Shown in pieces: positions 1 through 58,009 of a stretch of 64,000 nucleotides of DNA. The stretch is taken from IMG/VR virus record IMGVR_UViG_3300016744_000001. One strand, given 5' to 3'. The notes under the pieces are model-generated. The model was not told where the DNA came from and searched no databases. It saw nothing but the letters and a program-made list of their open reading frames with translations. This DNA comes from a virus. Lineage: Duplodnaviria > Caudoviricetes. Made by a program: the position numbers and the translations under genes. Position 1 is the first letter of the stretch; each line of letters begins with the position of its first letter.

Positions 1-855
1 ACGTTTGGTCACGGTAGTCAGTTCTGGTGTCTGCTGCAGTTCTTCCCAAGTGAGTTCATGACTATCAGGATAGACTGGACCGCTATCACCAATCTCATTA
101 CCTTCATCATCCTTGGGATTACCGACACGGATTGGAAATGTTCGGACAGTCATCATGACATTCCCAAGATAACTTGGATGTAATCCGAGATCACTCAGGA
201 CAGCAGATGGTGTCACATCAATGCTCGTGCAATGTGGATAGGAGTACCCATGATTAAGAGACAAATCAAAACCCTGTCCTGTCTCTACTAACACATTGAG
301 ATCCTGATCCAGCAAGTATTGCACGTATTCAGTGTCAGTCTTGATGAACGGCTGAAGTTCTTTTGTTCCTTGAGCAAGTGGATTGCTTCGCATGATCTTA
401 CTGGCTCTTGCCGCACCACTGCCAGATTGCGTGCTAGCGATGCGTACAACGCCGTTTTGATCCTGTTCCGTCTCCTTATCCATCTTTGTCACTACGGCCG
501 CTCTAGGGTGTATTATGAGCCGTTCTGGGCCTATGTCAAACTCACGCATCTCCTTGAAAAGGATGTCCAGATCAATGACACTCCCAGCACTGAGATAGAT
601 GGTGGATCGTTCTTGAATGATCCCGGCTACTGGGAGCATCTTGGTCACGTATTTTTTATCCTGGTAATAAAAAGTGTGACCAGCATTTGGTGACAATCTT
701 CCCACAGCGAGATGAACAGTATTGTCAAGAGCTAACCGGTTTGCAATTAACCCTTTCCCAGTAGAACCAAACTGTCCATCAATCACCATGTTGCATTTGC
801 CAGAGATAACAAAGTCATCCAAGGGACTTGATTCCCCGTGAGAAAGATTTGGCAT
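1..855 (-). CDS. purZ: PurZ-like N6-succino-2-amino-2'-deoxyadenylate synthase (adenylosuccinate synthetase family), 3'-truncated by window edge
   Basis: Hand translation from ATG 855 is open to base 1: ...NMVIDGQFGSTGKGLIA...SPNAGHT...IHPRAAV...IASTQSGSG...ETGQGFDLSLNHGYSYPHCTSIDVTP...RTFPIRVG...ELTWEELQQTPELTTVTKR. Ser replaces the PurA catalytic Asp (GSTGKG vs GDEGKG). Confidence 0.85.
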   Translation of the reverse strand, partial: MPNLSHGESSPLDDFVISGKCNMVIDGQFGSTGKGLIANRLALDNTVHLAVGRLSPNAGHTFYYQDKKYVTKMLPVAGIIQERSTIYLSAGSVIDLDILFKEMREFDIGPERLIIHPRAAVVTKMDKETEQDQNGVVRIASTQSGSGAARASKIMRSNPLAQGTKELQPFIKTDTEYVQYLLDQDLNVLVETGQGFDLSLNHGYSYPHCTSIDVTPSAVLSDLGLHPSYLGNVMMTVRTFPIRVGNPKDDEGNEIGDSGPVYPDSHELTWEELQQTPELTTVTKR

Positions 856-860
856 GGTAG

Positions 861-1262
861 TTAATCCGGCAGAATGAAACAACGGTTGATCACACCACCT
901 TGATAGTATCCAAACTCACCATCTGAGGTTCGTCCAGAGATCGGGGTTTTAGCGTCAATTGCCCTGAAGAGTTCTTTAATAGCTTCAGGAGAAAGATACT
1001 TAAACACAACCTCAATTGACTGTGATTGATTGTTGGTGCCTTTTGCCCGAACAGTGTACAATTTGGACGAATCCAATCTGCCAAGGATGTTGTTCCTGGC
1101 GGACATGGCCGCTCTTTCAAATTGTGTTTTATCCGTCCAGTATCGATCTTTTTCCTGGGGATTTAAGATTTCGATCTGGATAGGCGAATGATCTTCAGCA
1201 ACGACTTCTTCTATTCGCTGCTGAATTTTTCTGAAATTACGACGGATAACAGGCTTTTTCAT
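861..1262 (-). CDS. hypothetical protein
   Basis: 133 aa ORF with AGAGGA RBS; its stop lies 5 nt before the purZ start. Confidence 0.7.
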   Translation of the reverse strand: MKKPVIRRNFRKIQQRIEEVVAEDHSPIQIEILNPQEKDRYWTDKTQFERAAMSARNNILGRLDSSKLYTVRAKGTNNQSQSIEVVFKYLSPEAIKELFRAIDAKTPISGRTSDGEFGYYQGGVINRCFILPD

Positions 1263-1279
1263 TTGAACTGTCCTCTTTC

Positions 1280-1498
1280 TTAAATCGAAATTCCTTTCGT
1301 GGAGAGATGGGCTTTGACATTTTTGAACTTGTCAATTCGCTTCCGAATTTCTTCCGGTGGAAGAGACCACATCAATGGCATCCGCATTTCAAATTTGTGG
1401 TACGGATTAAGCACAAACTTGATGAGATGACCGTATTCTTGCATCCACAAACAACACCACTCGACACAAAGGCAAACACACAAAAATATCCAGAACAT
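1280..1498 (-). CDS. small membrane-anchored hypothetical protein
   Basis: AAGGAG RBS, hydrophobic N-terminus. Confidence 0.6.
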   Translation of the reverse strand: MFWIFLCVCLCVEWCCLWMQEYGHLIKFVLNPYHKFEMRMPLMWSLPPEEIRKRIDKFKNVKAHLSTKGISI

Positions 1499-1509
1499 GC
1501 TAAGCTCCT

Positions 1510-1815
1510 TTACATTTCAAGAACACGATATCCAGCACACCCACCACCATGACAAGAACAAATTCGTAGTTGTCCAGTTTTATCGTGTTTGGTCAATACC
1601 ATGGTTTTGTAGATGCCCGTAATCAGAACAGTGTCATCCACTTCCCATGTAAAATCAGCCTCGACAAACTCAAGTTTATCAATCCAATCTCCACCACAAG
1701 CGCAGAATGCCTTTGATGGAGTAACGTCTTTACAGTGGAAGTTGAAGCGAGCTAATGCTTTACAAAGAGCATCTTCAGAATAGTACACTCGTTGTGATTG
1801 TGGTGTTTTACCCAT
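1510..1815 (-). CDS. Cys-rich hypothetical protein
   Basis: GGAGG RBS before ATG 1815; CxC and CSCH...C motifs. Confidence 0.6.
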   Translation of the reverse strand: MGKTPQSQRVYYSEDALCKALARFNFHCKDVTPSKAFCACGGDWIDKLEFVEADFTWEVDDTVLITGIYKTMVLTKHDKTGQLRICSCHGGGCAGYRVLEM

Positions 1816-2086
1816 CTGGGTCCTCCAATCCAAATTCTTGGATCATTCGTACTAGTACGTCACCATGACAGATCTTTGGTTTACAATAACAACCAAGCCG
1901 TTTACCAACAAGAGGAATCAGATCCTCTTTGGTGAAAGTATCCCGAGCATAGTCTTCGTACATGTCGATAACATAAGCTCTGTCATTTTCGCACTTCATC
2001 GGGAAAGGATTTCCCCATTTACTACCTCTGCCAATATACACGTCATACGCAGATTTGCGTAAGTTAACTACCGTAGTCTTTGACAT
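1808..2086 (-). CDS. DUF4326 domain protein
   Basis: YIGRGSKWGNPF and LGCYCKPKICHGDVL motifs. Confidence 0.85.
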   Translation of the reverse strand: MSKTTVVNLRKSAYDVYIGRGSKWGNPFPMKCENDRAYVIDMYEDYARDTFTKEDLIPLVGKRLGCYCKPKICHGDVLVRMIQEFGLEDPDG

Positions 2087-2161
2087 GGGTTCCTCCGTTC
2101 AAGTATTTATCAATAGAAATATAAAGCTATCGTGAGACTCAATCAAGAGTCCCACGATTGG

Positions 2162-2737
2162 TTAGTTGGTTAATTGTTTGATATAAAGTAAACACTGAAT
2201 ATTTTCAGTTGGGTCTGGATCACGAAATTTTGTAAACAACTCGCAACTCATGGTGTCATAAAACGTAACATCGCAATATTTTTCATAGGTGCAGATCAAC
2301 AGTTTTTTGTAATTTTGCTTGACCGCATGATTACAAACACACTGAAAAAGTTCTGCACCATACTGTTTCCCGCGATGTTTTTTGTCAATCACAATAACTG
2401 TTAGTTCACCATCACAAAGTTTGATGAATGGTCGATAGGTATTATAAATCTCGTAGATGTAGAAGATTTTACGATTGTAAAATAACCACACCCAGTAGAT
2501 TAAAAAATGAAAAACAATGTTCCACCAAAAACGATAACTCGTACCTTTTGAGTAACCAGTAAAACCGATTACATTGTTGTTTTCTGTTTTAACAAATACA
2601 TATTTAGAAGCCCTGAGGATTTCAAGTAGGTAAAGCCAACTGAAGATATTTGTTGGTTTACCATCGTTCATTGGCCATTGTTCTTTAAGTAAATTCATGC
2701 ACGCTTTGGCATGTTTGTGGAAACGAAATGCTTGCAT
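2162..2737 (-). CDS. GNAT family acetyltransferase
   Basis: VIVIDKKHRGKQYGAELF acetyl-CoA motif A and FY motif; AT-rich gene. Confidence 0.75.
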   Translation of the reverse strand: MQAFRFHKHAKACMNLLKEQWPMNDGKPTNIFSWLYLLEILRASKYVFVKTENNNVIGFTGYSKGTSYRFWWNIVFHFLIYWVWLFYNRKIFYIYEIYNTYRPFIKLCDGELTVIVIDKKHRGKQYGAELFQCVCNHAVKQNYKKLLICTYEKYCDVTFYDTMSCELFTKFRDPDPTENIQCLLYIKQLTN

Positions 2738-2803
2738 TGATATACTCCTAAAGTATTGTCGATCATGCTATCATTGACTTAAGTAAATAAATATGCTTAG
2801 ACA

Positions 2804-2838
2804 TGACCCACACTCTGTCACTGACAGAGTGTGGGTCA
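2804..2838. terminator. 17-bp inverted repeat with 1-nt centre
   Basis: tgacccacactctgtca-c-tgacagagtgtgggtca immediately after the 2844..3689 stop. Confidence 0.7.
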
Positions 2839-2843
2839 CGTGA

Positions 2844-3689
2844 TCATACGGTCTGAAGGATCAGCTTACCATTACCGAAGGTAAATATTCGGCTGCCATC
2901 CCAGGTCACAGCGTTGACGACTGAACCAGTGTTGCAGATCTTGTACGCCATCTGGGTGTAGATGGCTTCTGTACGACGAAATGAAACACCAGCCGCGTCA
3001 TAGTCATCGACCCCACGGTCAACACCCGTGTACAGACCCCATTCGGAGATCTTGGCGTAGGTCAAGTCACCCTTGAACATGATGTTGATGGCTTCGTAAA
3101 CCTCAGCACCGGAAAGAGCCGCCTTGACTCGCTTGGTGCAGAGCACTTCAGTCATTGCCCCAGAAGTGACACCACTGACATCAGTTGTGCTGGGCACTGG
3201 ATACAGGTTAGCACTGTTGATTTCATACGCTTGTTCCTGACCGGTGGCCGGGTCAATGCGCACAATGCTGACGCTGTTGTCGATGAATTCCAGCTTCTTC
3301 AGGTAGTAGCACCAGTACTGAGCACCATTGAAAGTCTGCTGAACACGCATGCGGTACTGCAGCATCTCTGCCGTGGTCAGGTCTTCATCGATCGGGACAC
3401 ACCTGAATGGGATCGGCTGGTACAGGTCCATTTCATTGGACTTCGGCTGGTAAGGGGTGCCTTGGATTTTGTCACCCGTGTTGTAGAACCCATTGATACC
3501 AATCCCAAAGTACCCAAGGCCCGGTGCATCAGCGATGTCCGTAAGCGCTGAATACTTATTGTACTTGGTGTTCAGGGTAGAGTCCGGATATATGGGATAC
3601 GTCCCCGATATACGGTCTTCCAGATCATTGAGTTCAGCGAAAACAGTTTTCACTGCTCTTTCAGGATACTTCATATTCGTTGTTGCCAT
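2844..3689 (-). CDS. virion structural protein (phiKZ gp127-like)
   Basis: 281 aa; synteny with a gp128-like gene and the portal; ...PIPFRCVPIDEDLT...ISEWGLYTG. Confidence 0.55.
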   Translation of the reverse strand: MATTNMKYPERAVKTVFAELNDLEDRISGTYPIYPDSTLNTKYNKYSALTDIADAPGLGYFGIGINGFYNTGDKIQGTPYQPKSNEMDLYQPIPFRCVPIDEDLTTAEMLQYRMRVQQTFNGAQYWCYYLKKLEFIDNSVSIVRIDPATGQEQAYEINSANLYPVPSTTDVSGVTSGAMTEVLCTKRVKAALSGAEVYEAINIMFKGDLTYAKISEWGLYTGVDRGVDDYDAAGVSFRRTEAIYTQMAYKICNTGSVVNAVTWDGSRIFTFGNGKLILQTV

Positions 3690-3715
3690 TCGTCCAACTC
3701 CTACGGGGACTTAAA

Positions 3716-6094
3716 TTATTCAAGTGGACTGATATCCACAAGATCATTGCCTGCTCTCAGAACTGACATGACCGCTTGTGCACCATATATCTGGTAAAGA
3801 CCAGTAACGGAGAACGCATCATTTTCCAGCTTTTCAGTGGTTGTTGAAGAGAGCATTTGTTGACTGTCATAAAAACACATGTCACTGGTTTCTTTCAGAG
3901 TGGGATCACCCTTGATGACCACAGACACACTGTCATCAGTTGGTAGCATTTCTGTCTGTGTGGTGTCATTCAGAGTGGGATGCATTGAGTAATCATCCCG
4001 CAAGTCTGCAGGTAACATCTCAATTGCATTCACTTCACAATCACAACCAAGATCATTGATCTCAGTTGTTGAGGTGTCAACATGAGCGCCAGTGGTGACT
4101 GATGTGGGCATCAGTGACAAGTACGTCACATCAGTACGATCTGTATCAAGATACGTCAGATCCTGGCTGGTCCAATCGGTGAATAGCTGCTTGATTGATG
4201 AGTAGAATGCCGTGTTATCGTAGATTGCACCAGCATACCGCAACAACAATTCTGAATCTTGGATCGGTAATACCTGACCAATCAGGGTGTTGGCGAGCTG
4301 ATCGTAATAGACCTTGCTTTCTGGCAATTGGTCGTACGCTGAAATCAGTTGCCCGACTCCCTCGTTTTCAGCTAACCACTCTGTATACGGTTTGTTGGTT
4401 TGACCAAGGTTAACCGTTTCACGAGCAACCAAGAACTCGTAGAAGTACCACATCGCCCATTGATACGTGAGGTCAGGTTCAGTGGCGGCACTGCGCAGAT
4501 GTTGAATCATGACATCAAACTGCAACGCCAATGCCTGAATGAAATCCGATACCGATTCATACTTCTGGTCGATCCAAGGAATCTCTTTCAAGATGGTGTT
4601 GACCTGAACAATAGTGTCCATGTTGTACTTGAACCCGTTGAACCAGAAGTGGTCAGGTAAGTCCTTCAAGCTTGGTTTGGTCTTCTTGTACGCCAGATCA
4701 ACTGGGTACCTTTCAGGCAAATATTCTGGGGTGATCCCGAAACGTTTGTAGATGACGTAATGCATCAGGATCAGGGCATTTCCGATTGTCAGTGAAACGG
4801 GCAGTGCCGTGTTCTCATCCTTAAAGGTGATCTTGTACTGCAAGTTCCCTTGGGCAAATTGATACATCATGCTGTCAAACAAGAACACTGTCAAGTGTCT
4901 CAGATACTGAGTATTAACGATGTACTTCTGGAACTCCAGCAACCGAGTTGGGACCGTGTTCGTGGCAGTTCTTGCGAAGGATGCCGTCATCAACGCTGAA
5001 TCATCCACAGAGTAGTCCGGGTAGTACCCTTCCTTATATACACGATTCAATATCGTGTCCATGGATTCTTTCGCATTGGTGTTCACCAACTGACTACTGG
5101 AGGCAGTCATCGATTTGTATCTGCGAGTGGTTGCCAGCAATGGGTTAGCTGCAGCCACAGTAGAGGTCGTAGCTTCAGATTCGGCGATTGCTACTTGGTA
5201 ATCGACCACTTCTTCTGACAGGATTTCTGGGATTAGTTCCACGTCATCGTTCGGGTCAGTTGTCTGCTGCATGATGCGTTTACCAACCAAGTGCACACGT
5301 AAGTTCTGCAAGAGGTTGTCCGCCAACAAGATCATGTTGGACTTTCGACCACGGTTAGCTTTCAGGTAACGCATGTTGCGATAGAACCAACGAGCTTGGA
5401 CATCAGTCAGCATGGATTCATACGGGCCAAGACCATTTGCTTCCAAGCGATCCCACACGTGCATGTGGTGAACAGCATAGGTGTCGCAGTTCACCAAACG
5501 TTGCTTGATGATGCAACTAAATAACAACAGGTTGACCTTGGCCATGAACACCAGTGGATACTGATCTTCGTAGTTGTAGTCACGAATAAACCAACGATCC
5601 CTGACGTACTGCAGACACTGCTGACAAGCTAACAAGATTGATTCCCGTTCATTTTCCCTGAGGAAACTGGGAACTTGATTCACGATCGTCAGCTCATCGG
5701 CATTGATGACAGCATCGATATCTTTGCAGGGATAGATGATGTTTTTGATCAGACCAACTTGTGTAGGATATGTCAGACAGAGACGTTTATATGCATCACT
5801 GCCCATGGTGTAGAAAGATGCTGTCTTTGGATAGTTGGACCACAGGTCCAAATCGAATGGAACCGGTTCACCAGTTTCTACTGAAAGGACGGTCATGGGC
5901 TTATCGAGGAAGCTATACAAACCGCACAAATTGCGATAGTATGGGTTTTCCCGATCATTTGTTATCCGAAAATTCGTATTGTTGTGCACCTGTGTGGCAA
6001 TGATTTCAGCGAATGGACCAAACTTGATTGTCATGCTTGACAAGTACTGAAGAATTTCTCTTCGGTACAACTCATAGCGAATTGAACTTGCCAT
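3716..6094 (-). CDS. large virion structural protein (phiKZ gp128-like)
   Basis: About 792 aa from ATG 6094 with AAGGAAGG RBS; YYRNLCGLY...MTVLSVETG motif; divergent from the portal-like gene. Confidence 0.6.
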   Translation of the reverse strand: MASSIRYELYRREILQYLSSMTIKFGPFAEIIATQVHNNTNFRITNDRENPYYRNLCGLYSFLDKPMTVLSVETGEPVPFDLDLWSNYPKTASFYTMGSDAYKRLCLTYPTQVGLIKNIIYPCKDIDAVINADELTIVNQVPSFLRENERESILLACQQCLQYVRDRWFIRDYNYEDQYPLVFMAKVNLLLFSCIIKQRLVNCDTYAVHHMHVWDRLEANGLGPYESMLTDVQARWFYRNMRYLKANRGRKSNMILLADNLLQNLRVHLVGKRIMQQTTDPNDDVELIPEILSEEVVDYQVAIAESEATTSTVAAANPLLATTRRYKSMTASSSQLVNTNAKESMDTILNRVYKEGYYPDYSVDDSALMTASFARTATNTVPTRLLEFQKYIVNTQYLRHLTVFLFDSMMYQFAQGNLQYKITFKDENTALPVSLTIGNALILMHYVIYKRFGITPEYLPERYPVDLAYKKTKPSLKDLPDHFWFNGFKYNMDTIVQVNTILKEIPWIDQKYESVSDFIQALALQFDVMIQHLRSAATEPDLTYQWAMWYFYEFLVARETVNLGQTNKPYTEWLAENEGVGQLISAYDQLPESKVYYDQLANTLIGQVLPIQDSELLLRYAGAIYDNTAFYSSIKQLFTDWTSQDLTYLDTDRTDVTYLSLMPTSVTTGAHVDTSTTEINDLGCDCEVNAIEMLPADLRDDYSMHPTLNDTTQTEMLPTDDSVSVVIKGDPTLKETSDMCFYDSQQMLSSTTTEKLENDAFSVTGLYQIYGAQAVMSVLRAGNDLVDISPLE

Positions 6095-6127
6095 AAAAGT
6101 GCCTTCCTTAATAATTGGAGATGTCGC

Positions 6128-8968
6128 ATGGCTGAAACACAAAAGAAACATGCAACTGGTAAAGAGCTGCGCAGACGGTTCTTTGATATGTTCGACACCA
6201 GTACTGGCCAAGGTGAACAAGCATACACTGATAAATCAGTTTCGCTTGGCCTGACCAAAGAGTACAGTACGAATGAACTGAACATCATGACAAAACGCCA
6301 GTTTGTTACACCCAGTAACAATAAGCGTGCGGATCTGACCAGTGTCACCCAAGTCGTTGATGCCATCGGGCAGCCACATCGTGAGATTGTAAACAACATT
6401 GCTGATGCTGAACGACTGAAAGCGCTTGACCCGAACATCAAACGGGTCGAGCAGATCGTCGTGTCATCGATCATGTCCCCTAACGATTTGCAGGATGTTG
6501 ATCCAGAAATCGTGGTGGAGTCAGAAGAGATTCCTGATATCCAGAAAACCAAAATATCAGAACTTCTTACAAAATTTTATTGCGACACGTACAATCTCAG
6601 AAAGAAGATGACCAGCTGGGTCAAGGAAGCCCACTTCCGTTCTGGTGCTGGTGTCGGCATGATCTTGCCTGAAGCCACCCTTACTGAGATCATCAATAAG
6701 TACGACCCTCAACGGGTCTTCTTGCGCCAGAAGGCAAGTGAAAGTCTGATCAGACACGCTGATGAAAAGAAGCTGTCTACTGAAGAAGCAGCTTACCTGA
6801 AGTCAGTTATTTTTTCTGATCAGTTCTATCAGAACGTACTTGGTCATCAGGAGTTCACAGAAGTTCCAAAGGAATTTCTGCCAGCGGCTGGTGCCGAAGG
6901 GATCAAGGTTGGACTGCGGCAGTCACCGTTACAATCAGAGAATACTGAGAGTGAGCTTAACACAGAAGATCAGGCGATGGTTGAACAGATCTTCTCTGAC
7001 CTGATTTCTCTTGATCCACCAGACTTTCATGTAACTGATCTGATTCGAGCCGACCTTCGTCAAGGTGTGGAAAGCATCGCATTGAACTTCAACAAGGCGT
7101 TATCTGGCAAAGGTTCTGGTCTACACATTTCTGAAAATGCTGAAGTCCTCAGGTTTGGCCGAGCTTTTCGAAAGAACCAGAAGGACAAACTTGCAGCGAA
7201 GATCTCACCTATCTTCGCACAGTTGGATGCAACCAACGAAGAGAAGGATGACGACTTCTACGCTTATCGTGACTTGCCGATCATGGACCTCAGTGGACAC
7301 ATGACTGACTTTTCCGAACAGCAGACATATCCGTTTTACATGGACTTGCCTACTGAAGCCGTCATCCCGGTTTGTGTGCCCGGGACTAAAGATCAACATC
7401 TTGGCTACTTCATCCTGGCTGATGCGTATGGTCAACCAATCGAAGCGTCAGCTTATCTGATTGATGCTCCTGGCAACACCATCTCTGGTCGAATTAACAC
7501 CGCGTATCAAGCCATGTACGGTGAGATGCCCACAAACAGTGGTATCTACGGTGCCCCCGGTGCGGGTTACGGCTTGACCACGATGAAAGCTGCTGACTAC
7601 AAAAAGAATAGCATTAACAAGATCTTCAACTACGTCTTGGACGAGATGCTCAAGCGTAAGCTTGGAGACATGGGTCTGAACGATGTCACACTTGGTCGGT
7701 ACAACACAATCGCGCAGTGCATGTTGTATCGCCTTCTGGAGAAGAAACAGACATCACTGGTCTTCGTTCCAGAAAAGTACATCACGTACTTGGCATTCGA
7801 CTATCATCGAGCTGACGGTACTGGTAAGTCAAGGATTGAAGATATCCTGTACATGGAGTCTTTGAAAGTTTCCTTCTTGACTGCCAACACCATGGCAACA
7901 ATGAAGTCTGCGGTGCCCGTGAAGAAGCTGAAACTGACCTGTGATGAAAAGCAGATCAACACAACAGCACTTGCTTGGGAAGTAAGAAACGCTGTGGTGC
8001 AAAAAGAAAAGTTTTCACCCACAACGTACCCAGCAACTGTCGCTAACCAGATCCTGTCGCAAAACCTGTCAATCGACTTGACTCATCCAAACAGTCAGGG
8101 TTTTGCTTACACGGTTGAAGACACTCATCGGGAAATTCCCAAAGCAGATACTGCCTTCCTTGAACAGTTGGACAATGCCACCATCATTGGGTTGGGGGTT
8201 GCACCAAGTGCTTTGAGTGAAAGTAGTGAAGTGCAGTTTGCCCGGTCGTTGGCGACAACCAACTTGCATTATGCAAAGAGCATCCGTCAGGACCAGGTGA
8301 TCGTTGAAGAGATCACCACAACACATGTGCAAAACCATCTGGCATTGAGTAGTGCGCTCATTTACAAGATTGGCAACATCCTCAATTCTGTAGAAGAACA
8401 TGCTGACGCTGAACTTGAACGCACTGCACCGAAAAAGGACTTGACAGAAGTCAAACCTTCTACTGATGACAAACTGACAACCGTTGGTATGATCAGCCGG
8501 AAGATTGATGACAAGACCTTTGCCAAGGTATTGAAAGTCATTGCCAATGTCCATGTGAAGCTCTGTCCGCCAAACGTTGCACCTGACGATACTCAGTACA
8601 ACATCCTTGGTGATCAGATCAAGCGCATTGGTGAATACGTTGATGCTGTCTATCCTGACGATTACTCCAACTTCGGTGATGAGAAGGTATCGAACCATTA
8701 CCGGTTGGTTAAGGCACACATGAAGTCAATCCTTTGCAAGGAAGCTGCTGAACAGCTTGGCTTCAATGGCTTGATGACTCAGGTGCCCGACATCATGACT
8801 TACTCGCTGGAACACATGAGTGATTTGACGAAACTGTATGGTGTAATGAAAGGCATTTCTGAAACCATCACACGTCAAGTGCAAGCTCGTGAGAAGAAAG
8901 CCCCTGAGGACACTCCAGTGGAAGATACCTCTGGTGATACCTCTTCTAGCCCCAAGAACTTCTGGTAA
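6128..8968 (+). CDS. portal protein (phiKZ gp129-like)
   Basis: 946 aa; VSSIMSPND, LPTEAVIPVCVPG..HLGYFIL.D..GQP, AFDY..DGTGKS, LGVAPS....EVQFA pattern typical of jumbo-phage portals. Confidence 0.7.
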   Translation: MAETQKKHATGKELRRRFFDMFDTSTGQGEQAYTDKSVSLGLTKEYSTNELNIMTKRQFVTPSNNKRADLTSVTQVVDAIGQPHREIVNNIADAERLKALDPNIKRVEQIVVSSIMSPNDLQDVDPEIVVESEEIPDIQKTKISELLTKFYCDTYNLRKKMTSWVKEAHFRSGAGVGMILPEATLTEIINKYDPQRVFLRQKASESLIRHADEKKLSTEEAAYLKSVIFSDQFYQNVLGHQEFTEVPKEFLPAAGAEGIKVGLRQSPLQSENTESELNTEDQAMVEQIFSDLISLDPPDFHVTDLIRADLRQGVESIALNFNKALSGKGSGLHISENAEVLRFGRAFRKNQKDKLAAKISPIFAQLDATNEEKDDDFYAYRDLPIMDLSGHMTDFSEQQTYPFYMDLPTEAVIPVCVPGTKDQHLGYFILADAYGQPIEASAYLIDAPGNTISGRINTAYQAMYGEMPTNSGIYGAPGAGYGLTTMKAADYKKNSINKIFNYVLDEMLKRKLGDMGLNDVTLGRYNTIAQCMLYRLLEKKQTSLVFVPEKYITYLAFDYHRADGTGKSRIEDILYMESLKVSFLTANTMATMKSAVPVKKLKLTCDEKQINTTALAWEVRNAVVQKEKFSPTTYPATVANQILSQNLSIDLTHPNSQGFAYTVEDTHREIPKADTAFLEQLDNATIIGLGVAPSALSESSEVQFARSLATTNLHYAKSIRQDQVIVEEITTTHVQNHLALSSALIYKIGNILNSVEEHADAELERTAPKKDLTEVKPSTDDKLTTVGMISRKIDDKTFAKVLKVIANVHVKLCPPNVAPDDTQYNILGDQIKRIGEYVDAVYPDDYSNFGDEKVSNHYRLVKAHMKSILCKEAAEQLGFNGLMTQVPDIMTYSLEHMSDLTKLYGVMKGISETITRQVQAREKKAPEDTPVEDTSGDTSSSPKNFW

Positions 8969-8975
8969 CCATACT

Positions 8976-9007
8976 GACACTGAGGACGGGAAACCGTCCT
9001 CAGTGTC
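8976..9007 (+). terminator. 14-bp stem with GAAA tetraloop
   Basis: gacactgaggacgg-gaaa-ccgtcctcagtgtc after the portal stop. Confidence 0.75.
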
Positions 9008-9008
9008 T

Positions 9009-9040
9009 TGTAAACCGTATCAGTTTCTAAGATATATTAC
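9009..9040 (+). promoter_or_regulatory. phiKZ-type early promoter
   Basis: TGTAAA at 9009 and TATATTAC at 9033-9040, upstream of an accessory operon. Confidence 0.7.
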
Positions 9041-9072
9041 CACTTTGATGTTCTATCGTTAACATTTAACCA

Positions 9073-9732
9073 ATGAGGTCCACAATGTGCAATGAAGCTT
9101 TGTTGAAAAACTTTGGTAACTTGGTCACCCCAGAAATGTCTGACCGTGAAGCGTACCCACTGATCCTCAAGAAATTGTTGGATACCATGCCGCCTGACGC
9201 AAATGTCATGGTTGCGACGTCCGGTGCGCTTAACGAGCTGGTCACCAAGTTCTTTACAGACATTGACCGTGACCAATTCTTCTCGTTTAATGTCCAGTAT
9301 GCTGACTACCGGACATTGGAAAATGGTGTCTTTGCCGCATTGAACATTAAGATGCCAAGTCTGCGGCAATTGGTTGACCATCTGAAAGCCCACGGGACTT
9401 ACCGGGCATCGTTCGGCAGTGAAGATGTCCAGATCTCAGTTACCCTGATCACTGAGAATCAAGATCCTCGGTTCTTTGATTTGACAACTGGGATTCTTGG
9501 TTTCAAGACCAAAAACATTTTCTGCCGCAATTCCGGAAGTTGGCATGCAACCAAAGTGTTGTACAAGCTCCTGAAGGATTGGCAAATTCATTCTGGTGGC
9601 GAGCTTCGGGTGATCACTGATACTGCTGAATGGAATCACCACGAGTATCGTCCGGGCACAGTCTACCATTCTGGGATGGGCTGCACCAACCCTGTATGGG
9701 TTGATGCCGATCGCACACGCACATACGAGTAA
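9073..9732 (+). CDS. hypothetical protein, paralog family A
   Basis: DIDRDQFFSFNV and FKTKNIF shared with the 9746 and 11033 ORFs. Confidence 0.7.
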   Translation: MRSTMCNEALLKNFGNLVTPEMSDREAYPLILKKLLDTMPPDANVMVATSGALNELVTKFFTDIDRDQFFSFNVQYADYRTLENGVFAALNIKMPSLRQLVDHLKAHGTYRASFGSEDVQISVTLITENQDPRFFDLTTGILGFKTKNIFCRNSGSWHATKVLYKLLKDWQIHSGGELRVITDTAEWNHHEYRPGTVYHSGMGCTNPVWVDADRTRTYE

Positions 9733-9745
9733 GCTGGAGAAGCCC

Positions 9746-10240
9746 ATGGAACCGGATTTTTATGACCTAGTTACCAGGCTTACTTTGCAATCAGCATCCG
9801 AGTCCGACCAGCGGATTTATTTTGCAAAGGAACTCTTCCGCAACATCCCATCAACGGGTGAAGCATACACTGACATTCTCCGGGTATTGGATTCCTATCT
9901 GTTGGACATCGACAAATCTCAATTCTTTGAATTTGAGATCTTGATCGAAACCTTCGACAAAAAGTTTCGACCCCTGGTTTCAAAGTGTCAGCTGTTTGCT
10001 CCGGAGGCCAACATAATCCAGTTGGCTTTGGCTGACGGGACCCCCACGTACTTTGTGGGGGTTGGAACTGTTGCGGATTCTTTTCGCACTCGGCAAATCC
10101 AAATCCAGTATGCAACGAATCGTCTTTATTTCAAGATTCAGACGAAAAACGTGTTCACTGGATTTATGCGTGAAGCTCACGAACTGCTGCGCATGATCAC
10201 TGATGATCGTCGTGATCGGTACGAAACAAAAGTTTCTTAA
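9746..10240 (+). CDS. hypothetical protein, paralog family A
   Basis: GGAGA RBS before ATG 9746; DIDKSQFFEFEI and IQTKNVF. Confidence 0.7.
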   Translation: MEPDFYDLVTRLTLQSASESDQRIYFAKELFRNIPSTGEAYTDILRVLDSYLLDIDKSQFFEFEILIETFDKKFRPLVSKCQLFAPEANIIQLALADGTPTYFVGVGTVADSFRTRQIQIQYATNRLYFKIQTKNVFTGFMREAHELLRMITDDRRDRYETKVS

Positions 10241-10264
10241 CTGTCTAACCAAAAGGTCAACCAG

Positions 10265-10987
10265 ATGAAAAGTTTTCTTGGTGTTCTTACGTTGATGCTG
10301 GCAATCTTTTTCCTTGGCCTTGTTACCTGCAATGCAGAAGTCTCCAATGGCTACCGCATGGGCATGCTCAACAAGGTGTCTGACAGCGGCTGGATTGCGA
10401 AAAGCACCGAATGCCAGTTGTCGATGGGTGTGGATGGTACGCCCATGGTACTGACGTGGACAACAACCGATGACAAAGGTAAGGTTACCAACCACAAGAA
10501 CACGATCAACCCTTGGAAGTTTACCTACAAGGGTTCACGCAAGATCGGCGAATTCATCGGCACCTACATGGTGATTCCTTACGAAAAGGAATACTTCCGT
10601 AATTGGTTTGCGGAAGACACCCCGTACATTGTGAAAGATTTCTTGCCCATTGAAGAAACTCCGTTGCCTGAAAAGATGGCGACGTCCAAGGAATACGACG
10701 CCAAGAAATCCGAAGGTGCGCTTGTCGGGCGCATTGTTCAGGCGTCTTACCATGGCAAAGTCTTTAAGACCTACGAAGCCACAATCCAGGTTGGTATCGG
10801 CGGTGGTCAGTATCAGTTCATGACCATGGCTGATGAGGTCATCTACAACTTTGGTGTGGAAGCACTGAAGCGTGGTACACTGCTCAAGATCTCGTATGTG
10901 GATCTTGGTGTGATGAACAAGATCACCACCGCCAACAATTCCTACCGGATCACCAAGCTTGAAGTGGTGGAAAAGCCCAAGTTTTAA
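10265..10987 (+). CDS. exported/membrane-anchored protein with an internally duplicated domain
   Basis: Signal/TM N-terminus; repeats SNGYRMGMLNKVSDSGWIAKSTECQL and SEGALVGRIVQASYHGKVFKTYEATI. Confidence 0.7.
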   Translation: MKSFLGVLTLMLAIFFLGLVTCNAEVSNGYRMGMLNKVSDSGWIAKSTECQLSMGVDGTPMVLTWTTTDDKGKVTNHKNTINPWKFTYKGSRKIGEFIGTYMVIPYEKEYFRNWFAEDTPYIVKDFLPIEETPLPEKMATSKEYDAKKSEGALVGRIVQASYHGKVFKTYEATIQVGIGGGQYQFMTMADEVIYNFGVEALKRGTLLKISYVDLGVMNKITTANNSYRITKLEVVEKPKF

Positions 10988-51784: not shown

Positions 51785-53371
51785 CTACAATCCAAGTGGA
51801 AGCTTAAATATCCACCACAAGGTGAATTGAACCAAAAAGCAAACCGTGACAACAATTGATATTGGTAATGTTAAAGCATACACACTACCAATTCCAACTT
51901 CTTCATCATCACGGCGATACTTTTCCCAAATCATTAACACCACTGGAATGTAGTAGTTTATTATCGAAATACTGTCAGTGCATTTATCCCCGATCACGTA
52001 AGCCAATTGCGTCCATTCTGGAGATATCCCTAAACGATAAAACATGGGCACAACAATTGGTGCAAAGATCATCCACTTTGCTGATCCAGAAGTGATGAAC
52101 AAATTGATAAATGCGATCACGACAATCAACCCAATCATTGCTGGGTACTTTGACACCCCAAGGGTAATCAACAGTTCCGCCCCTTTGACAGAAACAATTG
52201 TTGTTAAATGACTATCTCCAAAAAACTTGATTGCGAATGCCGCAGGCAAACAAATCACCAAATACCCCGCAGCATCATAGATGCCAGATTGCATCATCTT
52301 TGGAATGTCATTACAACATTTTATTTTTTTCGTTGACACACCGTAGACTGTTCCAATCAGAAAAAACAACCCAACGATCAAAGCGATTATTCCTTCGGTG
52401 AATGGACTTTTCGGAACAAGTTTTCCCTGAGGATTCAACAAAAATCCCCCGTAAGAAGTCATTCCCAGAAACAACACAATCCCGTATCCAAAGACAGCAA
52501 TTGCTGTTAACCACAGTGCTCTGGTTACAACAATCGAATTGACATTCCCTTCAGCAATATCAATTAGGTGTTGATCCATTGAAGAATCTTTTCTTGTCGA
52601 ACAATTCAACATTCGTTTCCATTCAGCATCATCCAAATCCAATGGAATAATCTTTGGGATGAATTTTTCAGTCACGATTGTAATTGCAGTTGATAAAACA
52701 ATCAATGCAACTAGAAGAAAATAGTAATTTGACAATGGAGTGATCGTGGCTGGGATACCAGCAGCATCTACGGACATTTGTGTGATGCTGGACATCATAA
52801 CCATAAACCCGGTCAAAAGAATATTACAGGGTTCAGCACCATGTGCTGCAGCATACCCAATTGCTGCTCCAACGATTGGATTGCGTTTCATTGTTAAAAA
52901 AATTGCTGACGCAACTGTCGTTGAGATGATGATCCCAGCATTGGATGCTAAATTGGCCATACATGCCATCAGGACGACTGAAAACGTAATAAACGACCTA
53001 GGTACTACGTTACACACTTTGTGCATTAGATCGACAAAGAAACCCGTTTCTTTGACATACCCAACAACCAGCAAAGTTACCATGACCAATCCCAATGGGG
53101 CAAAGCTGATGTACACCTTGGTAAAGTCTTTGAGGATGTAGTGGAGGTAGTCAATGCTCATCAGGTTTCTGACAGCCACTACCTGGTTGACCAACTTGTT
53201 CGTAGACTTGTCCACGATATCAGCTTGCACTGCGACACCATAGTGACTCAGAACGGCTGACAGTCCAAGAGTGATCAACATCAATGATACAAACAAAAAG
53301 AATGGGTTTGGCAGTTTATTCCCCACTCTCATTACCCAGCCAAAGAAACCATTTTGTATTCCAGTCGACAT
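51785..53371 (-). CDS. abgT: AbgT family p-aminobenzoyl-glutamate transporter
   Basis: GNKLPNPFFLF, FAPLGLV, RNPIVG, NLFITSGSAKW, YVIGDKCT, GIGSV...LP; many TMs; AAGGAG RBS before ATG 53371. Confidence 0.88.
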   Translation of the reverse strand: MSTGIQNGFFGWVMRVGNKLPNPFFLFVSLMLITLGLSAVLSHYGVAVQADIVDKSTNKLVNQVVAVRNLMSIDYLHYILKDFTKVYISFAPLGLVMVTLLVVGYVKETGFFVDLMHKVCNVVPRSFITFSVVLMACMANLASNAGIIISTTVASAIFLTMKRNPIVGAAIGYAAAHGAEPCNILLTGFMVMMSSITQMSVDAAGIPATITPLSNYYFLLVALIVLSTAITIVTEKFIPKIIPLDLDDAEWKRMLNCSTRKDSSMDQHLIDIAEGNVNSIVVTRALWLTAIAVFGYGIVLFLGMTSYGGFLLNPQGKLVPKSPFTEGIIALIVGLFFLIGTVYGVSTKKIKCCNDIPKMMQSGIYDAAGYLVICLPAAFAIKFFGDSHLTTIVSVKGAELLITLGVSKYPAMIGLIVVIAFINLFITSGSAKWMIFAPIVVPMFYRLGISPEWTQLAYVIGDKCTDSISIINYYIPVVLMIWEKYRRDDEEVGIGSVYALTLPISIVVTVCFLVQFTLWWIFKLPLGL

Positions 53372-53422
53372 AGCGTTCTCCTTTACAACGTTCATATTTC
53401 TTTTTGTTTATGTTCAAATGTA

Positions 53423-53463: not shown

Positions 53464-54651
53464 TTACGATTCGAGTTTTCCAGCTGCGGTAATCTTGGCC
53501 ATCGTTTCGAGGTCAAGAGATTCAGCAAGAGCGATCGCCAGCTCAGTCTTCGTGAAGAGGCTGTCAACCACAGCATATTCATTTTCCGTGTGGTTGAACT
53601 CACCCTCCACACCCATCTGGTCAATGGTCGGGATATCTTTCATCACGGCATATGCCGCGTCACCTGCACCACCAGAAACGATACTTGGACCCATGGGGAG
53701 ACCACGCTGTTTGGCAACATCGACTGCCTGCATGTACAGAGCTGTGTTAGCGTAAGTTGCTGTCATCGGTGGGATACCCGGAACAACCGAGGTGTATGCT
53801 CTGGCTTTATCGTCACACAAGAACAGACTTTCCGTGATAAGATCACGAACTCTCTGGATGCTGTTTTCATCATAGACACGGATGTCGAATTTGACCTCGG
53901 CACGATCGGCAATGACATTCCTCGCCGACCCCCCATTGATCACCCCAGGAGTGAACCAGAATTTCTCACGGTCATTGAACTGCGAGATGTAGTTGATGAT
54001 CTTAACCGCCGTCATAATCGCATCACACCCGTTTTCTGGGTTTCTGCCAGTGTGCGCGGATTTACCTTCGATTCTCATGTCGAGGTTGATCGTCCCGGCT
54101 CGGCCAATGATCAACCCGTGATCCAGTGATGCCGTCTCAAAGCTGAAGGCTGCAGCCGCTCCAAGACATTCATCCTGCATAACGGCTGCAAAACTCGAAT
54201 CATCGGTGTGACCAACTTCTTCACCGCTGGTAAAGATAAGTTTGATCGGACGAGAATAACCTCGTTTGACAAGAGCCAACGCGGTGTAGATCATGATGAC
54301 GATCCCACCTTTCATATCCAAGACACCAGAACCAAAGATCTTTCCGTCGTGGATTGTGCAACTTGCGGCAGTCCTGACAGTATCCACATGTCCCATGAAG
54401 ACTAAAGGCCGCAGCTCAGTGGCGGGCCCAGTTATGTAGCTTACGATTGATGGCCGTGCACAGTACTTCGAGCAGTATGCCTCAAGGGTATGCTTCCTCA
54501 GTTTACAAAAACCTTCTTGGATCTCACGATCTATCCGAGCAAAGATCTCGGATTTGTCATCGTAAGTTGAAGAAGCAATGTTGACCAGGTCTTGCCAGAA
54601 CCTGATCATTTCTTTTTCATGTTCCTTAATGAACTGTTTGATATCATCCAT
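53464..54651 (-). CDS. M20 metallopeptidase, glutamate carboxypeptidase (CPG2)-like
   Basis: GHVDTV, GSGVLDMKGG, GEEVG, FETA, GKSAHTG, GGAGDA, HTENEY. Confidence 0.88.
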   Translation of the reverse strand: MDDIKQFIKEHEKEMIRFWQDLVNIASSTYDDKSEIFARIDREIQEGFCKLRKHTLEAYCSKYCARPSIVSYITGPATELRPLVFMGHVDTVRTAASCTIHDGKIFGSGVLDMKGGIVIMIYTALALVKRGYSRPIKLIFTSGEEVGHTDDSSFAAVMQDECLGAAAAFSFETASLDHGLIIGRAGTINLDMRIEGKSAHTGRNPENGCDAIMTAVKIINYISQFNDREKFWFTPGVINGGSARNVIADRAEVKFDIRVYDENSIQRVRDLITESLFLCDDKARAYTSVVPGIPPMTATYANTALYMQAVDVAKQRGLPMGPSIVSGGAGDAAYAVMKDIPTIDQMGVEGEFNHTENEYAVVDSLFTKTELAIALAESLDLETMAKITAAGKLES

Positions 54652-55400: not shown

Positions 55401-56795
55401 ATGATTTCCAACAACATTATCACCAAGACAGACAGTTACAAGCACTCTCACTACCAGGTACTTCCTGAAGGTACCAAGACTGTGTACTCCTATCTGGAGA
55501 GCCGTAAAGGCATGTATCCGTATGACCTGTTCTTCGGTATGCAGGCGTACTTGATGAAGTATTTGACGAAGCCCTTCACCAAGAAGGACATCGACATTGC
55601 TGAACGTCGGGTCAACCAGCATATCCCTGAGCTTAAATTCAACCGGAAGGGATGGGAACACATTCTTAACAAGCACGGCGGCTACTTGCCACTGCGCATC
55701 CGTGCCGTACAGGAAGGCTTGAAGATTCCCTTGAGGATGCCTCTTGTCACTGTCCAAAACACCGACCCTGCGGTGCCCTGGTTGACTGGTCACATCGAGA
55801 CCACTCTTCTGAGGGGTATCTGGTATCCGACCACCGTTGCTACCCGGTCGAACTGGATACGGGGAATCCTGGCTGAAGCGTTGAAGAAGAGCTCTGACAC
55901 GACATCACCCATGGAAAAGCTGAACTTCATGCTGCATGACTTTGGTATGCGTGGCAACACCTGCGAAGAATCTGCTGGCATCAGTGGTGCAGCTCACCTG
56001 GTGAACTTCATGGGGACCGACACAATGGACGCGCTTGACTGGGTGGAGACATACTACTCAGAAGAATGCGCCGGTTACTCGATCCCTGCGACAGAGCACT
56101 CAGTCATGACGATCTACGGTCGTCGGAATGAGATTGAAGCGTATCGGACCGCTATTCGCAAGTTTGCGAAGAAGGGTGCCATCTTCGCTACTGTGGCTGA
56201 CTCGTACGACATTTTCGAAGTTTGTCGTTCGATCATGCCCCAGCTCAAAGATGACATCGTGGCATCTGGCGCCACCATGGTACTCCGTCCCGACAGCGGT
56301 GATCCCATGAGCGTACTGCCGAAGATGCTGGAACTGCTGGAACCAATCTTTGGTGTGACCTACAACTCGAAAGGGTACAAGGTCCTCAACCACATTCGTC
56401 TGATCTGGGGTGATGGTATTAACCAAGACTCCGTCAAGGCGATTGTTGAGTTGCTGAACCAGCTTGGTTACAGTGTGGACAACATCGCATTTGGTTGCGG
56501 TGGCTGGATGGTGCAGGACCTGACCCGCGATACCCAAGGTTTCGCAATGAAGGCAGCTGCTGCACTGGTGGATGGTACACACATCGAACTCTGCAAGGAC
56601 CCGGTCACTGACCCTGGTAAGCGCAGCAAGGCAGGCATGGTGACCACGTACCAGAACGGAGATGGGCAGTACTACTCTGGTCTGTGGATCGAAGGCACCG
56701 ACGATGCCCTGCAGGATGTGTACCTTGACGGTGAATTGCTTAACACCACAACGATGGCTGCGGTCCGTGAACGGGCCGACATGGGAGCGTTCTAA
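55401..56795 (+). CDS. nadV: nicotinamide phosphoribosyltransferase (NAMPT/NadV)
   Basis: TDSYKHSH, WYPTTVAT, LHDFGMRG, AHLVNFMGTD, SIPATEHS, LRPDSGDP, WGDGI, KDPVTDPGKRSK. Confidence 0.95.
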   Translation: MISNNIITKTDSYKHSHYQVLPEGTKTVYSYLESRKGMYPYDLFFGMQAYLMKYLTKPFTKKDIDIAERRVNQHIPELKFNRKGWEHILNKHGGYLPLRIRAVQEGLKIPLRMPLVTVQNTDPAVPWLTGHIETTLLRGIWYPTTVATRSNWIRGILAEALKKSSDTTSPMEKLNFMLHDFGMRGNTCEESAGISGAAHLVNFMGTDTMDALDWVETYYSEECAGYSIPATEHSVMTIYGRRNEIEAYRTAIRKFAKKGAIFATVADSYDIFEVCRSIMPQLKDDIVASGATMVLRPDSGDPMSVLPKMLELLEPIFGVTYNSKGYKVLNHIRLIWGDGINQDSVKAIVELLNQLGYSVDNIAFGCGGWMVQDLTRDTQGFAMKAAAALVDGTHIELCKDPVTDPGKRSKAGMVTTYQNGDGQYYSGLWIEGTDDALQDVYLDGELLNTTTMAAVRERADMGAF

Positions 56796-58009
56796 TGAGT
56801 GCTACGATTTATTCTGAACGCCACATCGGCGTGTTGATTGGCAGGTTTCAGCCGTTTCATCTCGGCCACATGCACCAGATCAGCGAAGCGTTGGACCAAG
56901 GTCTGAACAACTTCAAGATCTTCATCGGCTCAGCCAACAGTGGACGGACACTCCAGAATCCGTTCACGGTTGCGGAAAGAGTTCAGATGATCGGCCTTGC
57001 AGTCGGTGACATGCTGATTGACAAAGGTTGCGCAACGGTCAAGTCTGAGGCTTATTCGCAAAGCGTCACTGATCAGCAGGCGTATCCGATCTGGACCATC
57101 ACTGGTGCGAAATCATCTCGTGAACAGGTCACGATCGAGATCTACCCGCTGAATGACTACTTGTACAACGATGACAAGTGGAAGCTTGAATTCCTGACAG
57201 CACTGTTCACTGAACGGAGCGGTTTCAAGTTCAGGCCGATCCACACCTTGCTGGGTTACCACAAGGATGCCACATCGTGGTACCTTGACGAATTCCGTGA
57301 ACTGGAACAGGCAATCGTCAAGACTCCGTACAAAGCGGTGATTGGTGGCACTGAAACCATGATCAGTGCGACCGACATCAGAGAACGTTACTTCCTTGAT
57401 GAGACCATCTCAATGACCGATTCCTACAAGGAAAACGGTTGGGATACCATTCTGCCTTACAAGGTTGCACTTTGGCTGGAATTGTTCAAAGTACAGCAGC
57501 CGCGTGATTGGCAGTATGTTCGTGACGAATACAAGTTCATGGTTGATTACAAGAAGCTGTGGGCGGGATCACCATATCCCCCGATCTTCGTCACAACCGA
57601 CGCCTTGATTCAACAGGGTAACAACATCCTGATGATCCAACGGCGGACTCAGCCGGGCAAGAACATGTGGGCAATGCCTGGTGGATTCTTGAAGGACAAT
57701 GAACTGCTCGAGACTGGTATGCTTCGTGAACTTCGCGAAGAAACTGGTCTCCGTGTATCCATGCCTGTCCTCAAGCGGTGCATCGTGAACCGTGAGGTCA
57801 TTGACAATCCGAACAGGAGCAGTCGTGGCCGTACGATCACACATGTGTTCCACATCAAGTTGGAGGACATCTCCAATGGTCTGCCAGCGATCCGTGGCGC
57901 ATCTGACGCAGTCAAAGCACGGTGGATTCCACTGTACGAGGTTGCCAAGATGAAGGCCGAGATCTTTGAAGATCACTGGGACATCATTGCCAAACTGATC
58001 AAGTTCTAA
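56795..58009 (+). CDS. nadM: bifunctional NMN adenylyltransferase / Nudix ADP-ribose pyrophosphatase (NadM-Nudix, NatV-like)
   Basis: IGRFQPFHLGH, NPFTVAER, ISATDIR; Nudix box PGGFL...RELREETGL; FEDHWDII. Confidence 0.93.
   Translation: MSATIYSERHIGVLIGRFQPFHLGHMHQISEALDQGLNNFKIFIGSANSGRTLQNPFTVAERVQMIGLAVGDMLIDKGCATVKSEAYSQSVTDQQAYPIWTITGAKSSREQVTIEIYPLNDYLYNDDKWKLEFLTALFTERSGFKFRPIHTLLGYHKDATSWYLDEFRELEQAIVKTPYKAVIGGTETMISATDIRERYFLDETISMTDSYKENGWDTILPYKVALWLELFKVQQPRDWQYVRDEYKFMVDYKKLWAGSPYPPIFVTTDALIQQGNNILMIQRRTQPGKNMWAMPGGFLKDNELLETGMLRELREETGLRVSMPVLKRCIVNREVIDNPNRSSRGRTITHVFHIKLEDISNGLPAIRGASDAVKARWIPLYEVAKMKAEIFEDHWDIIAKLIKF

Follow-up and report, generated by a model that had tools for sequence, protein, structure and literature searches.

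We analyzed a 64,000-nucleotide stretch of viral DNA (hereafter the window) from IMG/VR record IMGVR_UViG_3300016744_000001, corresponding to record positions 101,691-165,690 of a 273,278-bp contig. On sequence evidence, the gene cut by the left edge of the window is purZ, which encodes a synthetase in the pathway to 2-aminoadenine (Z), and is neither purA nor purZ0. By the same evidence it is intact and under purifying selection, and the phage that carries it is a phiKZ-like jumbo phage very distant from the cultured members of that group. The interpretation we favor, though with only fair confidence, is that this intact, selected PurZ in a 273-kb phiKZ-like phage belongs to a nucleotide-pool module, in which it would make the Z precursor.

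Within the window, the purZ open reading frame (ORF) begins at an ATG at 853-855, with an alternative in-frame TTG start upstream at 882, and its left end is open at the window edge. Because the edge cuts the ORF, it is absent from the ordinary ORF list and appears only when open ends are allowed, which explains why the first-pass annotation described the gene as missed by the ORF track. The motifs quoted in that annotation were all found in the minus-strand translation: GQFGSTGKG (residue 27), PNAGHT (56), YPHCTS (206), FPIRVG (240), ELTWEEL (267), and PELTTVTK (277). The last 78 codons fall outside the window, to its left, on contig ena:ERZ27250306:k133_69751, where the whole gene occupies L009:10028-11119. 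The DNA of this contig (L009, 273,278 bp) is 100% identical to window positions 1-10,882, and a second contig (L008) matches at 99.97%; the same PurZ protein is also encoded on a 273,336-bp JGI contig. A megablast search of phage records gave no match. The best database match belongs to a 90% cluster that contained the full-length protein (P0122, 363 aa) together with a 372-aa version; P0122 is 100% identical to the 285 residues encoded in the window. Two contig walks added record positions 74,091-101,690 to the window, bringing the scanned part of the genome to 91.6 kb (33%).

The identity of the enzyme follows from database rankings, motifs, and phylogeny, all of which bore out the original proposal of a PurZ-type enzyme. 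The product matched Pfam PF00709 (Adenylsucc_synt; E-values of 1.4e-27 and 2e-29 in two Pfam searches) and PHROG 1211 ('2-aminooxy adenylosuccinate synthetase'; 1.8e-52). Among PDB sequences, phiVC8 PurZ ranked first (6FM1/6FKO; 7e-40, with an alignment spanning all 265 residues tested) and S-2L PurZ second (7ODX; 4e-38), followed by archaeal PurA (5K7X), the PurZ0 entry 7VF6 (2e-25), and E. coli PurA (approximately 1e-12). The best NCBIfam model was NF038379 PurZ at 257 bits, compared with 195 bits for archaeal-type PurA. We then aligned the protein with annotated reference genes from phage records. The P-loop reads GDEGKG in PurA, GSEAKG in PurZ0, and GSTGKG in PurZ, and the window protein has GSTGKG. 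The base-recognition motif is TKLD in PurA, LTMLDQ or LSFADQ in PurZ0 (which keeps the Asp), and FLNF(C/A/M)(N/Q)Y in PurZ, and here it is FLNFINY. This motif, at residue 310 of P0122, lies left of the window, where the first-pass annotation had proposed to read nucleotide specificity; it is of the ATP type (NFxNY) and replaces the Asp-containing (S/T)KxD GTP motif of PurA. Residues that discriminate PurZ are, in Vibrio numbering, F12, S14, T262, F295, Y298, and W252 (bioRxiv 10.1101/2025.10.22.683976, section 8). In P0122, F29, S31, and the Thr of TTVTK align with F12, S14, and T262 and are invariant in its clade.

These comparisons bear on two other assignments. An auxiliary phage PurA that raises AMP synthesis and has nothing to do with Z would have precedent, as true PurA is carried by large phages: megaphage LR756501 (735 kb), which we considered as a jumbo PurZ carrier and rejected, encodes an ordinary PurA with GDEGKG at 345,344-346,543. 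We consider this very improbable here, given that Ser takes the place of the catalytic Asp in the window protein and in all 243 homologues with a readable P-loop (Asp in 0/243), that the GTP motif is replaced, and that the tree sets the protein apart from PurA with support of 100. The second assignment, a PurZ0-type or intermediate, GTP-dependent enzyme, had been suggested from the Arg that follows TTVTK (TTVTKRVRR in the window protein). This Arg does align with the PurA Arg, and the PurZ model score lies under its cut-off. However, 'KR' is the commonest state after TTVT (95 of 268 homologues) and is also found in the PurZ of Ochrobactrum phage OH; the C-terminus carries NFxNY and no Asp-bearing motif; the P-loop is GSTGKG rather than GSEAKG; the PurZ0 entry 7VF6 matched at 2e-25, against 7e-40 for PurZ; and PurZ0 falls outside in the trees. 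The suggestion is therefore not supported, and we regard such an enzyme as highly unlikely. The protein probably acts as PurZ, for which homology predicts the reaction dGMP + aspartate + ATP to dSMP (N6-succino-2-amino-2'-deoxyadenylate synthase).

Phylogenies against PurA, PurZ, and PurZ0 placed the window protein within PurZ, with the other two outside. In a first tree of 78 rows rooted on PurA, PurZ0 split first and the window protein lay deep within PurZ, apart from PurA with support of 100. In a second tree, built from PurZ proteins on contigs of at least 20 kb, all large-phage PurZs (on contigs of 83-287 kb) formed a single 14-row clade (support 90), within which the window protein belonged to a 7-row clade (support 99). 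The large-phage clade was nested among small-phage PurZs that have full DatZ-MazZ-DpoZ clusters, and the presence of DatZ near purZ changed only three times on this tree. The large-phage clade thus has its origin within ordinary PurZ and travels without the classical helpers. As a separate observation, the query matched five PurZ homologues of 730-765 aa (P0142, P0165, P0181, P0194, and P0267) in two separate stretches, which suggests a large insertion, possibly an intein.

The gene could in principle be left over from a purZ gained by horizontal transfer and now be decaying or without function, given that no canonical Z cluster accompanies it. We find this scarcely credible. The 363-codon frame is complete and its C-terminus intact, reading TTVTKRVRR ... 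FLNFINY; against an 80%-identical homologue, the proportion of changed nonsynonymous sites (pN) is 0.155 and that of synonymous sites (pS) 0.88, which is saturated; 65 positions show no variation in a clade whose members fall as low as 49% identity; the P-loop and catalytic positions do not vary among 19 clade members; and purZ is kept in syntenic complete relatives.

The phage itself had been described as a phiKZ-like jumbo phage with a multisubunit RNA polymerase, and its length of 273,278 bp, its phiKZ-type virion genes, and polymerase subunits left of the window agree with that description. The tail sheath (phrog_3242; 5.5e-88) gave tblastn matches to phiKZ-like jumbo phages only, at approximately 24% identity. 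The window also encodes phiKZ-type structural PHROGs (3004, 3185, 3430, 3184, and 3222), the Pfam families Peptidase_S80, phiKZ_gp29PR, and Phage_TTP_14, and a large terminase. No RNA polymerase gene was identified inside the 64-kb window; subunits of the multisubunit enzyme (phrog_2962, 3.8e-70; phrog_3233, 4.5e-66; phrog_2943, 6e-51) and the phiKZ divergent DNA polymerase (L163:646-2826; PF20286 divDNApol; phrog_2927, 2.7e-109) lie 8-27 kb to its left. Two relatives, G003 (220,982 bp, with terminal repeats) and G004 (286,688 bp), are complete IMG/VR genomes that share a syntenic block with the window phage, made up of 19-20 of 79 ORFs whose products are 30-50% identical. Homologues of phiKZ gp55, SbcD, and gp71 occur in both genomes in phiKZ order, and G003 also has gp66. 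A further candidate relative, G001:C1 (264 kb), was rejected because it shares only 5 of 79 ORFs and has no phiKZ markers; it is an independent carrier of PurZ and of the NDT-fold protein described below. In the relatives, a tblastn search with phiKZ gp54 found no match to chimallin, and a profile of the ORF upstream of the gp55 homologue found no match to solved chimallins among PDB sequences. The AlphaFold model of this ORF had a predicted local distance difference test (pLDDT) score of 37, a word-index protein search returned one near-identical sequence only, and Atlas gave only weak GNAT-like matches below its trust level.

Downstream of purZ, on the same strand, lie a 97-aa ORF, a 171-aa gene product (P0125) whose frame overlaps that ORF by 17 nt, and, after 155 nt, a class II ribonucleotide reductase gene (nrdJ; L009:12071-16117, left of the window, 1,348 aa). 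We read the purZ unit (the DUF4326 gene, three small ORFs, purZ, the 97-aa ORF, and P0125) together with the reductase as a putative nucleotide-pool module. The nrdJ product itself may carry an insertion, since its barrel domain (94-721) and TSCPD domain (1199-1291) lie approximately 480 residues apart.

A structural model of P0125 built from 17 homologues (pLDDT 83) has the nucleoside 2'-deoxyribosyltransferase (NDT)/DNPH1 fold. DNPH1 and NDT proteins were its top Foldseek matches (probability 1.0, E-value of 5.6e-4), and nearly all of the top 50 VIA-align matches belonged to the same two groups (Z 9.1-9.8 over 104-125 residues; root mean square deviation 2.8-3.9 over 109-120 residues). Read from the alignment, the family has an invariant Glu (E89) and an invariant Asp (D60) at the NDT nucleophile and Asp positions. 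It also has a GS(T)R stretch, which we take to resemble the phosphate-binding GSIR of DNPH1, and, relative to NDT and DNPH1, an extra beta-rich segment of 50 residues at the C-terminus. In the four closest relatives the family shares a contig with purZ, even where the contigs are as short as 7.6 and 18 kb. It is also present in G001:C1, G002, G003, and G004, yet only 9 of 50,697 phage records contain it. Separately, a homologue with the NDT fold and 40% identity lies at 668,433-668,786 of LR756501.1, alongside that phage's canonical PurA, and Caulobacter jumbo phages CcrColossus and CcrPW also carry the NDT-fold gene. Given these three phages, the family is not restricted to PurZ carriers.

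In the pathway that we favor, PurZ would convert dGMP, aspartate, and ATP to dSMP, and host adenylosuccinate lyase (PurB) and kinases would carry dSMP to dZTP. The phage contigs of G001-G004 showed no PurB (Lyase_1) gene; small Z phages likewise lack a phage PurB and use the host enzyme. The adjoining ribonucleotide reductase would supply the deoxynucleotide pool, and the phiKZ-type B-family polymerase would have to incorporate dZTP. P0125 would most likely act like DmtZ and metagenomic NDT-M2, removing or exchanging the adenine in dAMP or dA, and would in this way replace the missing DatZ/MazZ pair. An NDT that prefers dA is reportedly associated with dZ-enriched contigs. DmtZ is an NDT-like dAMP hydrolase/transferase that works in PurZ0 phages without DatZ (PMC12884076). 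In those phages, DutZ or DUF5664 converts dATP to dAMP, and DmtZ splits dAMP and can form dZMP from the Z base (PMC12884076). For the window phage, the substrates, the role of P0125, and the entry of Z into DNA are what we infer from these likenesses.

Several results weigh against this interpretation. The PurZ score of 257 bits is below the curated NF038379 cut-off of 300 bits; seven PurZs encoded in full DatZ-MazZ-DpoZ clusters, among them the Ochrobactrum phage OH enzyme, reach only 213-243 bits, and the cut-off is therefore conservative and leaves out true members. P0125 has no sequence match in Pfam (including the NDT families), NCBIfam, or the PDB, and in its family the position of the catalytic Tyr of NDT and DNPH1 appears, from the alignment, to be taken by an invariant Thr. 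Comparison of P0125 with DmtZ by hhalign was not significant (E-value of 0.12), though the Glu residues align (E89). A search of five other large PurZ contigs found no P0125 homologue, but it had no positive control and so carries little weight. The remaining points concern the helper enzymes, which in characterized PurZ phages exclude dATP and supply dGMP. From annotated reference genes we derived profiles for DatZ, MazZ, DUF550/DUF5664, Dut-type, DmtZ, and DpoZ, with 80 IMG/VR purZ loci plus reference loci as a positive control; among these 89 loci the profiles found DatZ in 62, MazZ in 53, and DpoZ in 66. In the scanned 91.6 kb of the window phage genome, there was no match for DatZ, MazZ, DUF550/DUF5664, Dut-type, or DpoZ, consistent with the earlier statement that the window holds no datZ, mazZ, or dpoZ. 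Nor were DatZ, MazZ, or DpoZ found in the whole of G002, G003, and G004 or in the unrelated 264-kb G001:C1. No enzyme converting dATP to dAMP was identified in the scanned part of the genome, and the NDT-fold protein would therefore have no source for its presumed substrate, barring one provided by the host or by a phage gene outside the scanned part. This missing step is the main gap in the proposed mechanism.

Other searches around the purZ loci extend this picture. The profiles found none of DatZ, MazZ, and DpoZ at the purZ loci nearest to that of the window, which are on large contigs. Among the relatives, only G003 encodes a DUF5664-type dATP/dGTP diphosphohydrolase N-terminal domain (L127:2073-2903, G003 102073-102903; PF18909, 2.4e-13), and G002 has a dUTPase-family gene 2.3 kb from purZ. 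Two ORFs beside purZ were considered as hidden helpers and rejected: the 97-aa ORF, which occupies the position of MazZ in phage OH, had no match in Pfam, NCBIfam, or the MazZ profile and no homologue in relatives, and the 133-aa ORF, considered as DatZ or MazZ, had no family match. On a 67-kb contig with a 58%-identical PurZ, the gene after purZ (L042:11075-11680) has a product of 201 aa that shows the pattern H...HD...D and was missed by both the DatZ profile and Pfam; it may be a divergent HD helper.

The absence of helpers is also what gives weight to a different account, in which PurZ is active and the phage has no Z genome. Z nucleotides, or the drain on dGMP, would then serve partial or sporadic substitution, poison host replication or defence nucleases, or balance the pool together with the reductase. 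Neither the scanned third of the genome nor the complete relatives yielded the helpers that enforce full substitution, the entire large-phage PurZ clade lacks them near purZ, the polymerase is of the ordinary phiKZ type rather than DpoZ, and Chimalliviridae are reported to be less reliant on DNA modification. We know of no such alternative role for PurZ, however, and PurZ is strongly conserved along with the NDT-fold partner. Absent helpers are also compatible with Z-DNA elsewhere: S-2L lacks DpoZ as well and is annotated with a non-selective PrimPol instead, and PurZ0 phages are counted as Z-DNA phages even though they have no DatZ (PMC12884076). On balance, we hold a PurZ without a Z genome to be a minority possibility, if a serious one. 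Regarding the extent of substitution under the favored pathway, we lean slightly toward the phage DNA carrying some Z, and we doubt that substitution of A by Z is near-complete. Equally doubtful is the most far-reaching scenario, in which a phiKZ-like, possibly nucleus-forming lineage would replace most or all A by Z through PurZ and a new NDT-fold enzyme that clears dAMP or salvages Z, without DatZ, MazZ, and DpoZ, so that an altered genome and a protein shell would both protect the phage.

Upstream of purZ, the DUF4326 gene is probably the first gene of the purZ unit (Table 1), and G003, a complete relative, has a DUF4326 homologue (153647-153862) approximately 1 kb away from its purZ. The hairpin beyond the DUF4326 gene may mark the upstream end of the transcription unit, though the evidence for this is weak. 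A scan for promoters and terminators found sites no more numerous than in shuffled sequence.

Table 1. The purZ gene and its upstream neighbourhood, in window coordinates.
Feature	Position	Strand	Remarks
purZ, codons 1-285/363	1..855	-	GSTGKG P-loop; best NCBIfam model NF038379 PurZ
133-aa ORF	861..1262	-	directly upstream of purZ; stop 5 nt before purZ ATG; predicted as a gene in both public contigs
72-aa ORF	1280..1498	-	co-directional; no family match
101-aa ORF	1510..1815	-	co-directional; no family match
DUF4326 protein, 92 aa	1808..2086	-	Pfam PF14216, E 2.3e-21; PHROG 464
Hairpin, 12-bp stem, T-rich tail	2129..2158 (L009 8725-8754)	-	between GNAT gene and DUF4326

Compared with known systems, the window PurZ shares fold, length class, GSTGKG, TTVTK, and NFxNY with the PurZs of phiVC8, S-2L, and Acinetobacter phages, at approximately 38-40% identity. 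Those enzymes are encoded in sipho- and podophage genomes of 38-68 kb beside DatZ, MazZ or DUF550, and usually DpoZ, whereas the window PurZ is encoded in a 273-kb phiKZ-like myophage with an NDT-fold gene and nrdJ as neighbours. The first-pass annotation had noted that characterized Z phages are small; among 214 PurZ/PurA-like matches in phage records, those in cultured Z-type phages are indeed all in genomes of 38-68 kb. With the PurZ0 systems of Arthrobacter, Gordonia, and Microbacterium phages (DutZ, DmtZ, DUF5664), the window phage shares the lack of a detected DatZ and an NDT-superfamily enzyme near the synthetase, and its relatives go further in this direction through the DUF5664-type domain of G003 and the dUTPase-family gene of G002. 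Unlike those systems, it has a PurZ-type synthetase, a P0125 without significant similarity to DmtZ, and no Dut-type gene in the scanned part. One passage in section 24 of PMC12884076 reverses what the PurZ0 motifs (with the Asp kept) and that paper's introduction imply, probably by a slip. The phage resembles other phiKZ-like phages and Chimalliviridae in its phiKZ-type virion genes, split multisubunit RNA polymerase, divergent DNA polymerase, and genome of more than 200 kb, and the complete relatives keep the gp55 ... SbcD, gp66 ... gp71 block as the phiKZ group does. It differs from cultured phiKZ-like phages in its tail sheath, and none of them matched PurZ.

Two further gene sets in the window concern cofactor metabolism. 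An AbgT-family aminobenzoyl-glutamate transporter (PDB 4R1I, 3e-56; PF03806, 2.9e-103) adjoins a carboxypeptidase-G2-like M20 enzyme (1CG2, 1e-22), at 51785-53395 (-) and 53464-54651 (-); together they look like a phage-borne pair for folate breakdown or salvage. An NAD salvage set at approximately 55401-58009 (+) comprises a nicotinamide phosphoribosyltransferase (phrog_448, 4e-154) and a cytidylyltransferase-like/NUDIX protein, with the ORFs assigned by size only.

To our knowledge, chemical proof of Z-DNA comes only from small sipho- and podophages, in which DatZ, MazZ, and often DpoZ accompany PurZ. In a full-text search of the literature, no paper linked PurZ, 2-aminoadenine, or diaminopurine to jumbo phages or to phiKZ-like or nucleus-forming ones. 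No link to PurZ is mentioned in a 2026 jumbo-phage review, which describes DNA modification as less common in Chimalliviridae. The enzyme family is known; what is new is the combination of PurZ, an NDT-fold partner, no detected DatZ, MazZ, or DpoZ, and a phiKZ-like genome, and this combination makes Z-DNA plausible in the phiKZ-like group. The conserved NDT-fold partner is a candidate for a new route of removing deoxyadenine nucleotides. Should these phages make no Z-DNA, PurZ would have a second role. If they do make it, the minimal requirements for replacing A by Z would be looser than thought, the phiKZ-type B-family polymerase must accept dZTP, and the idea that nucleus-forming phages have little need of DNA modification (PMC13282480) would have to be revised.

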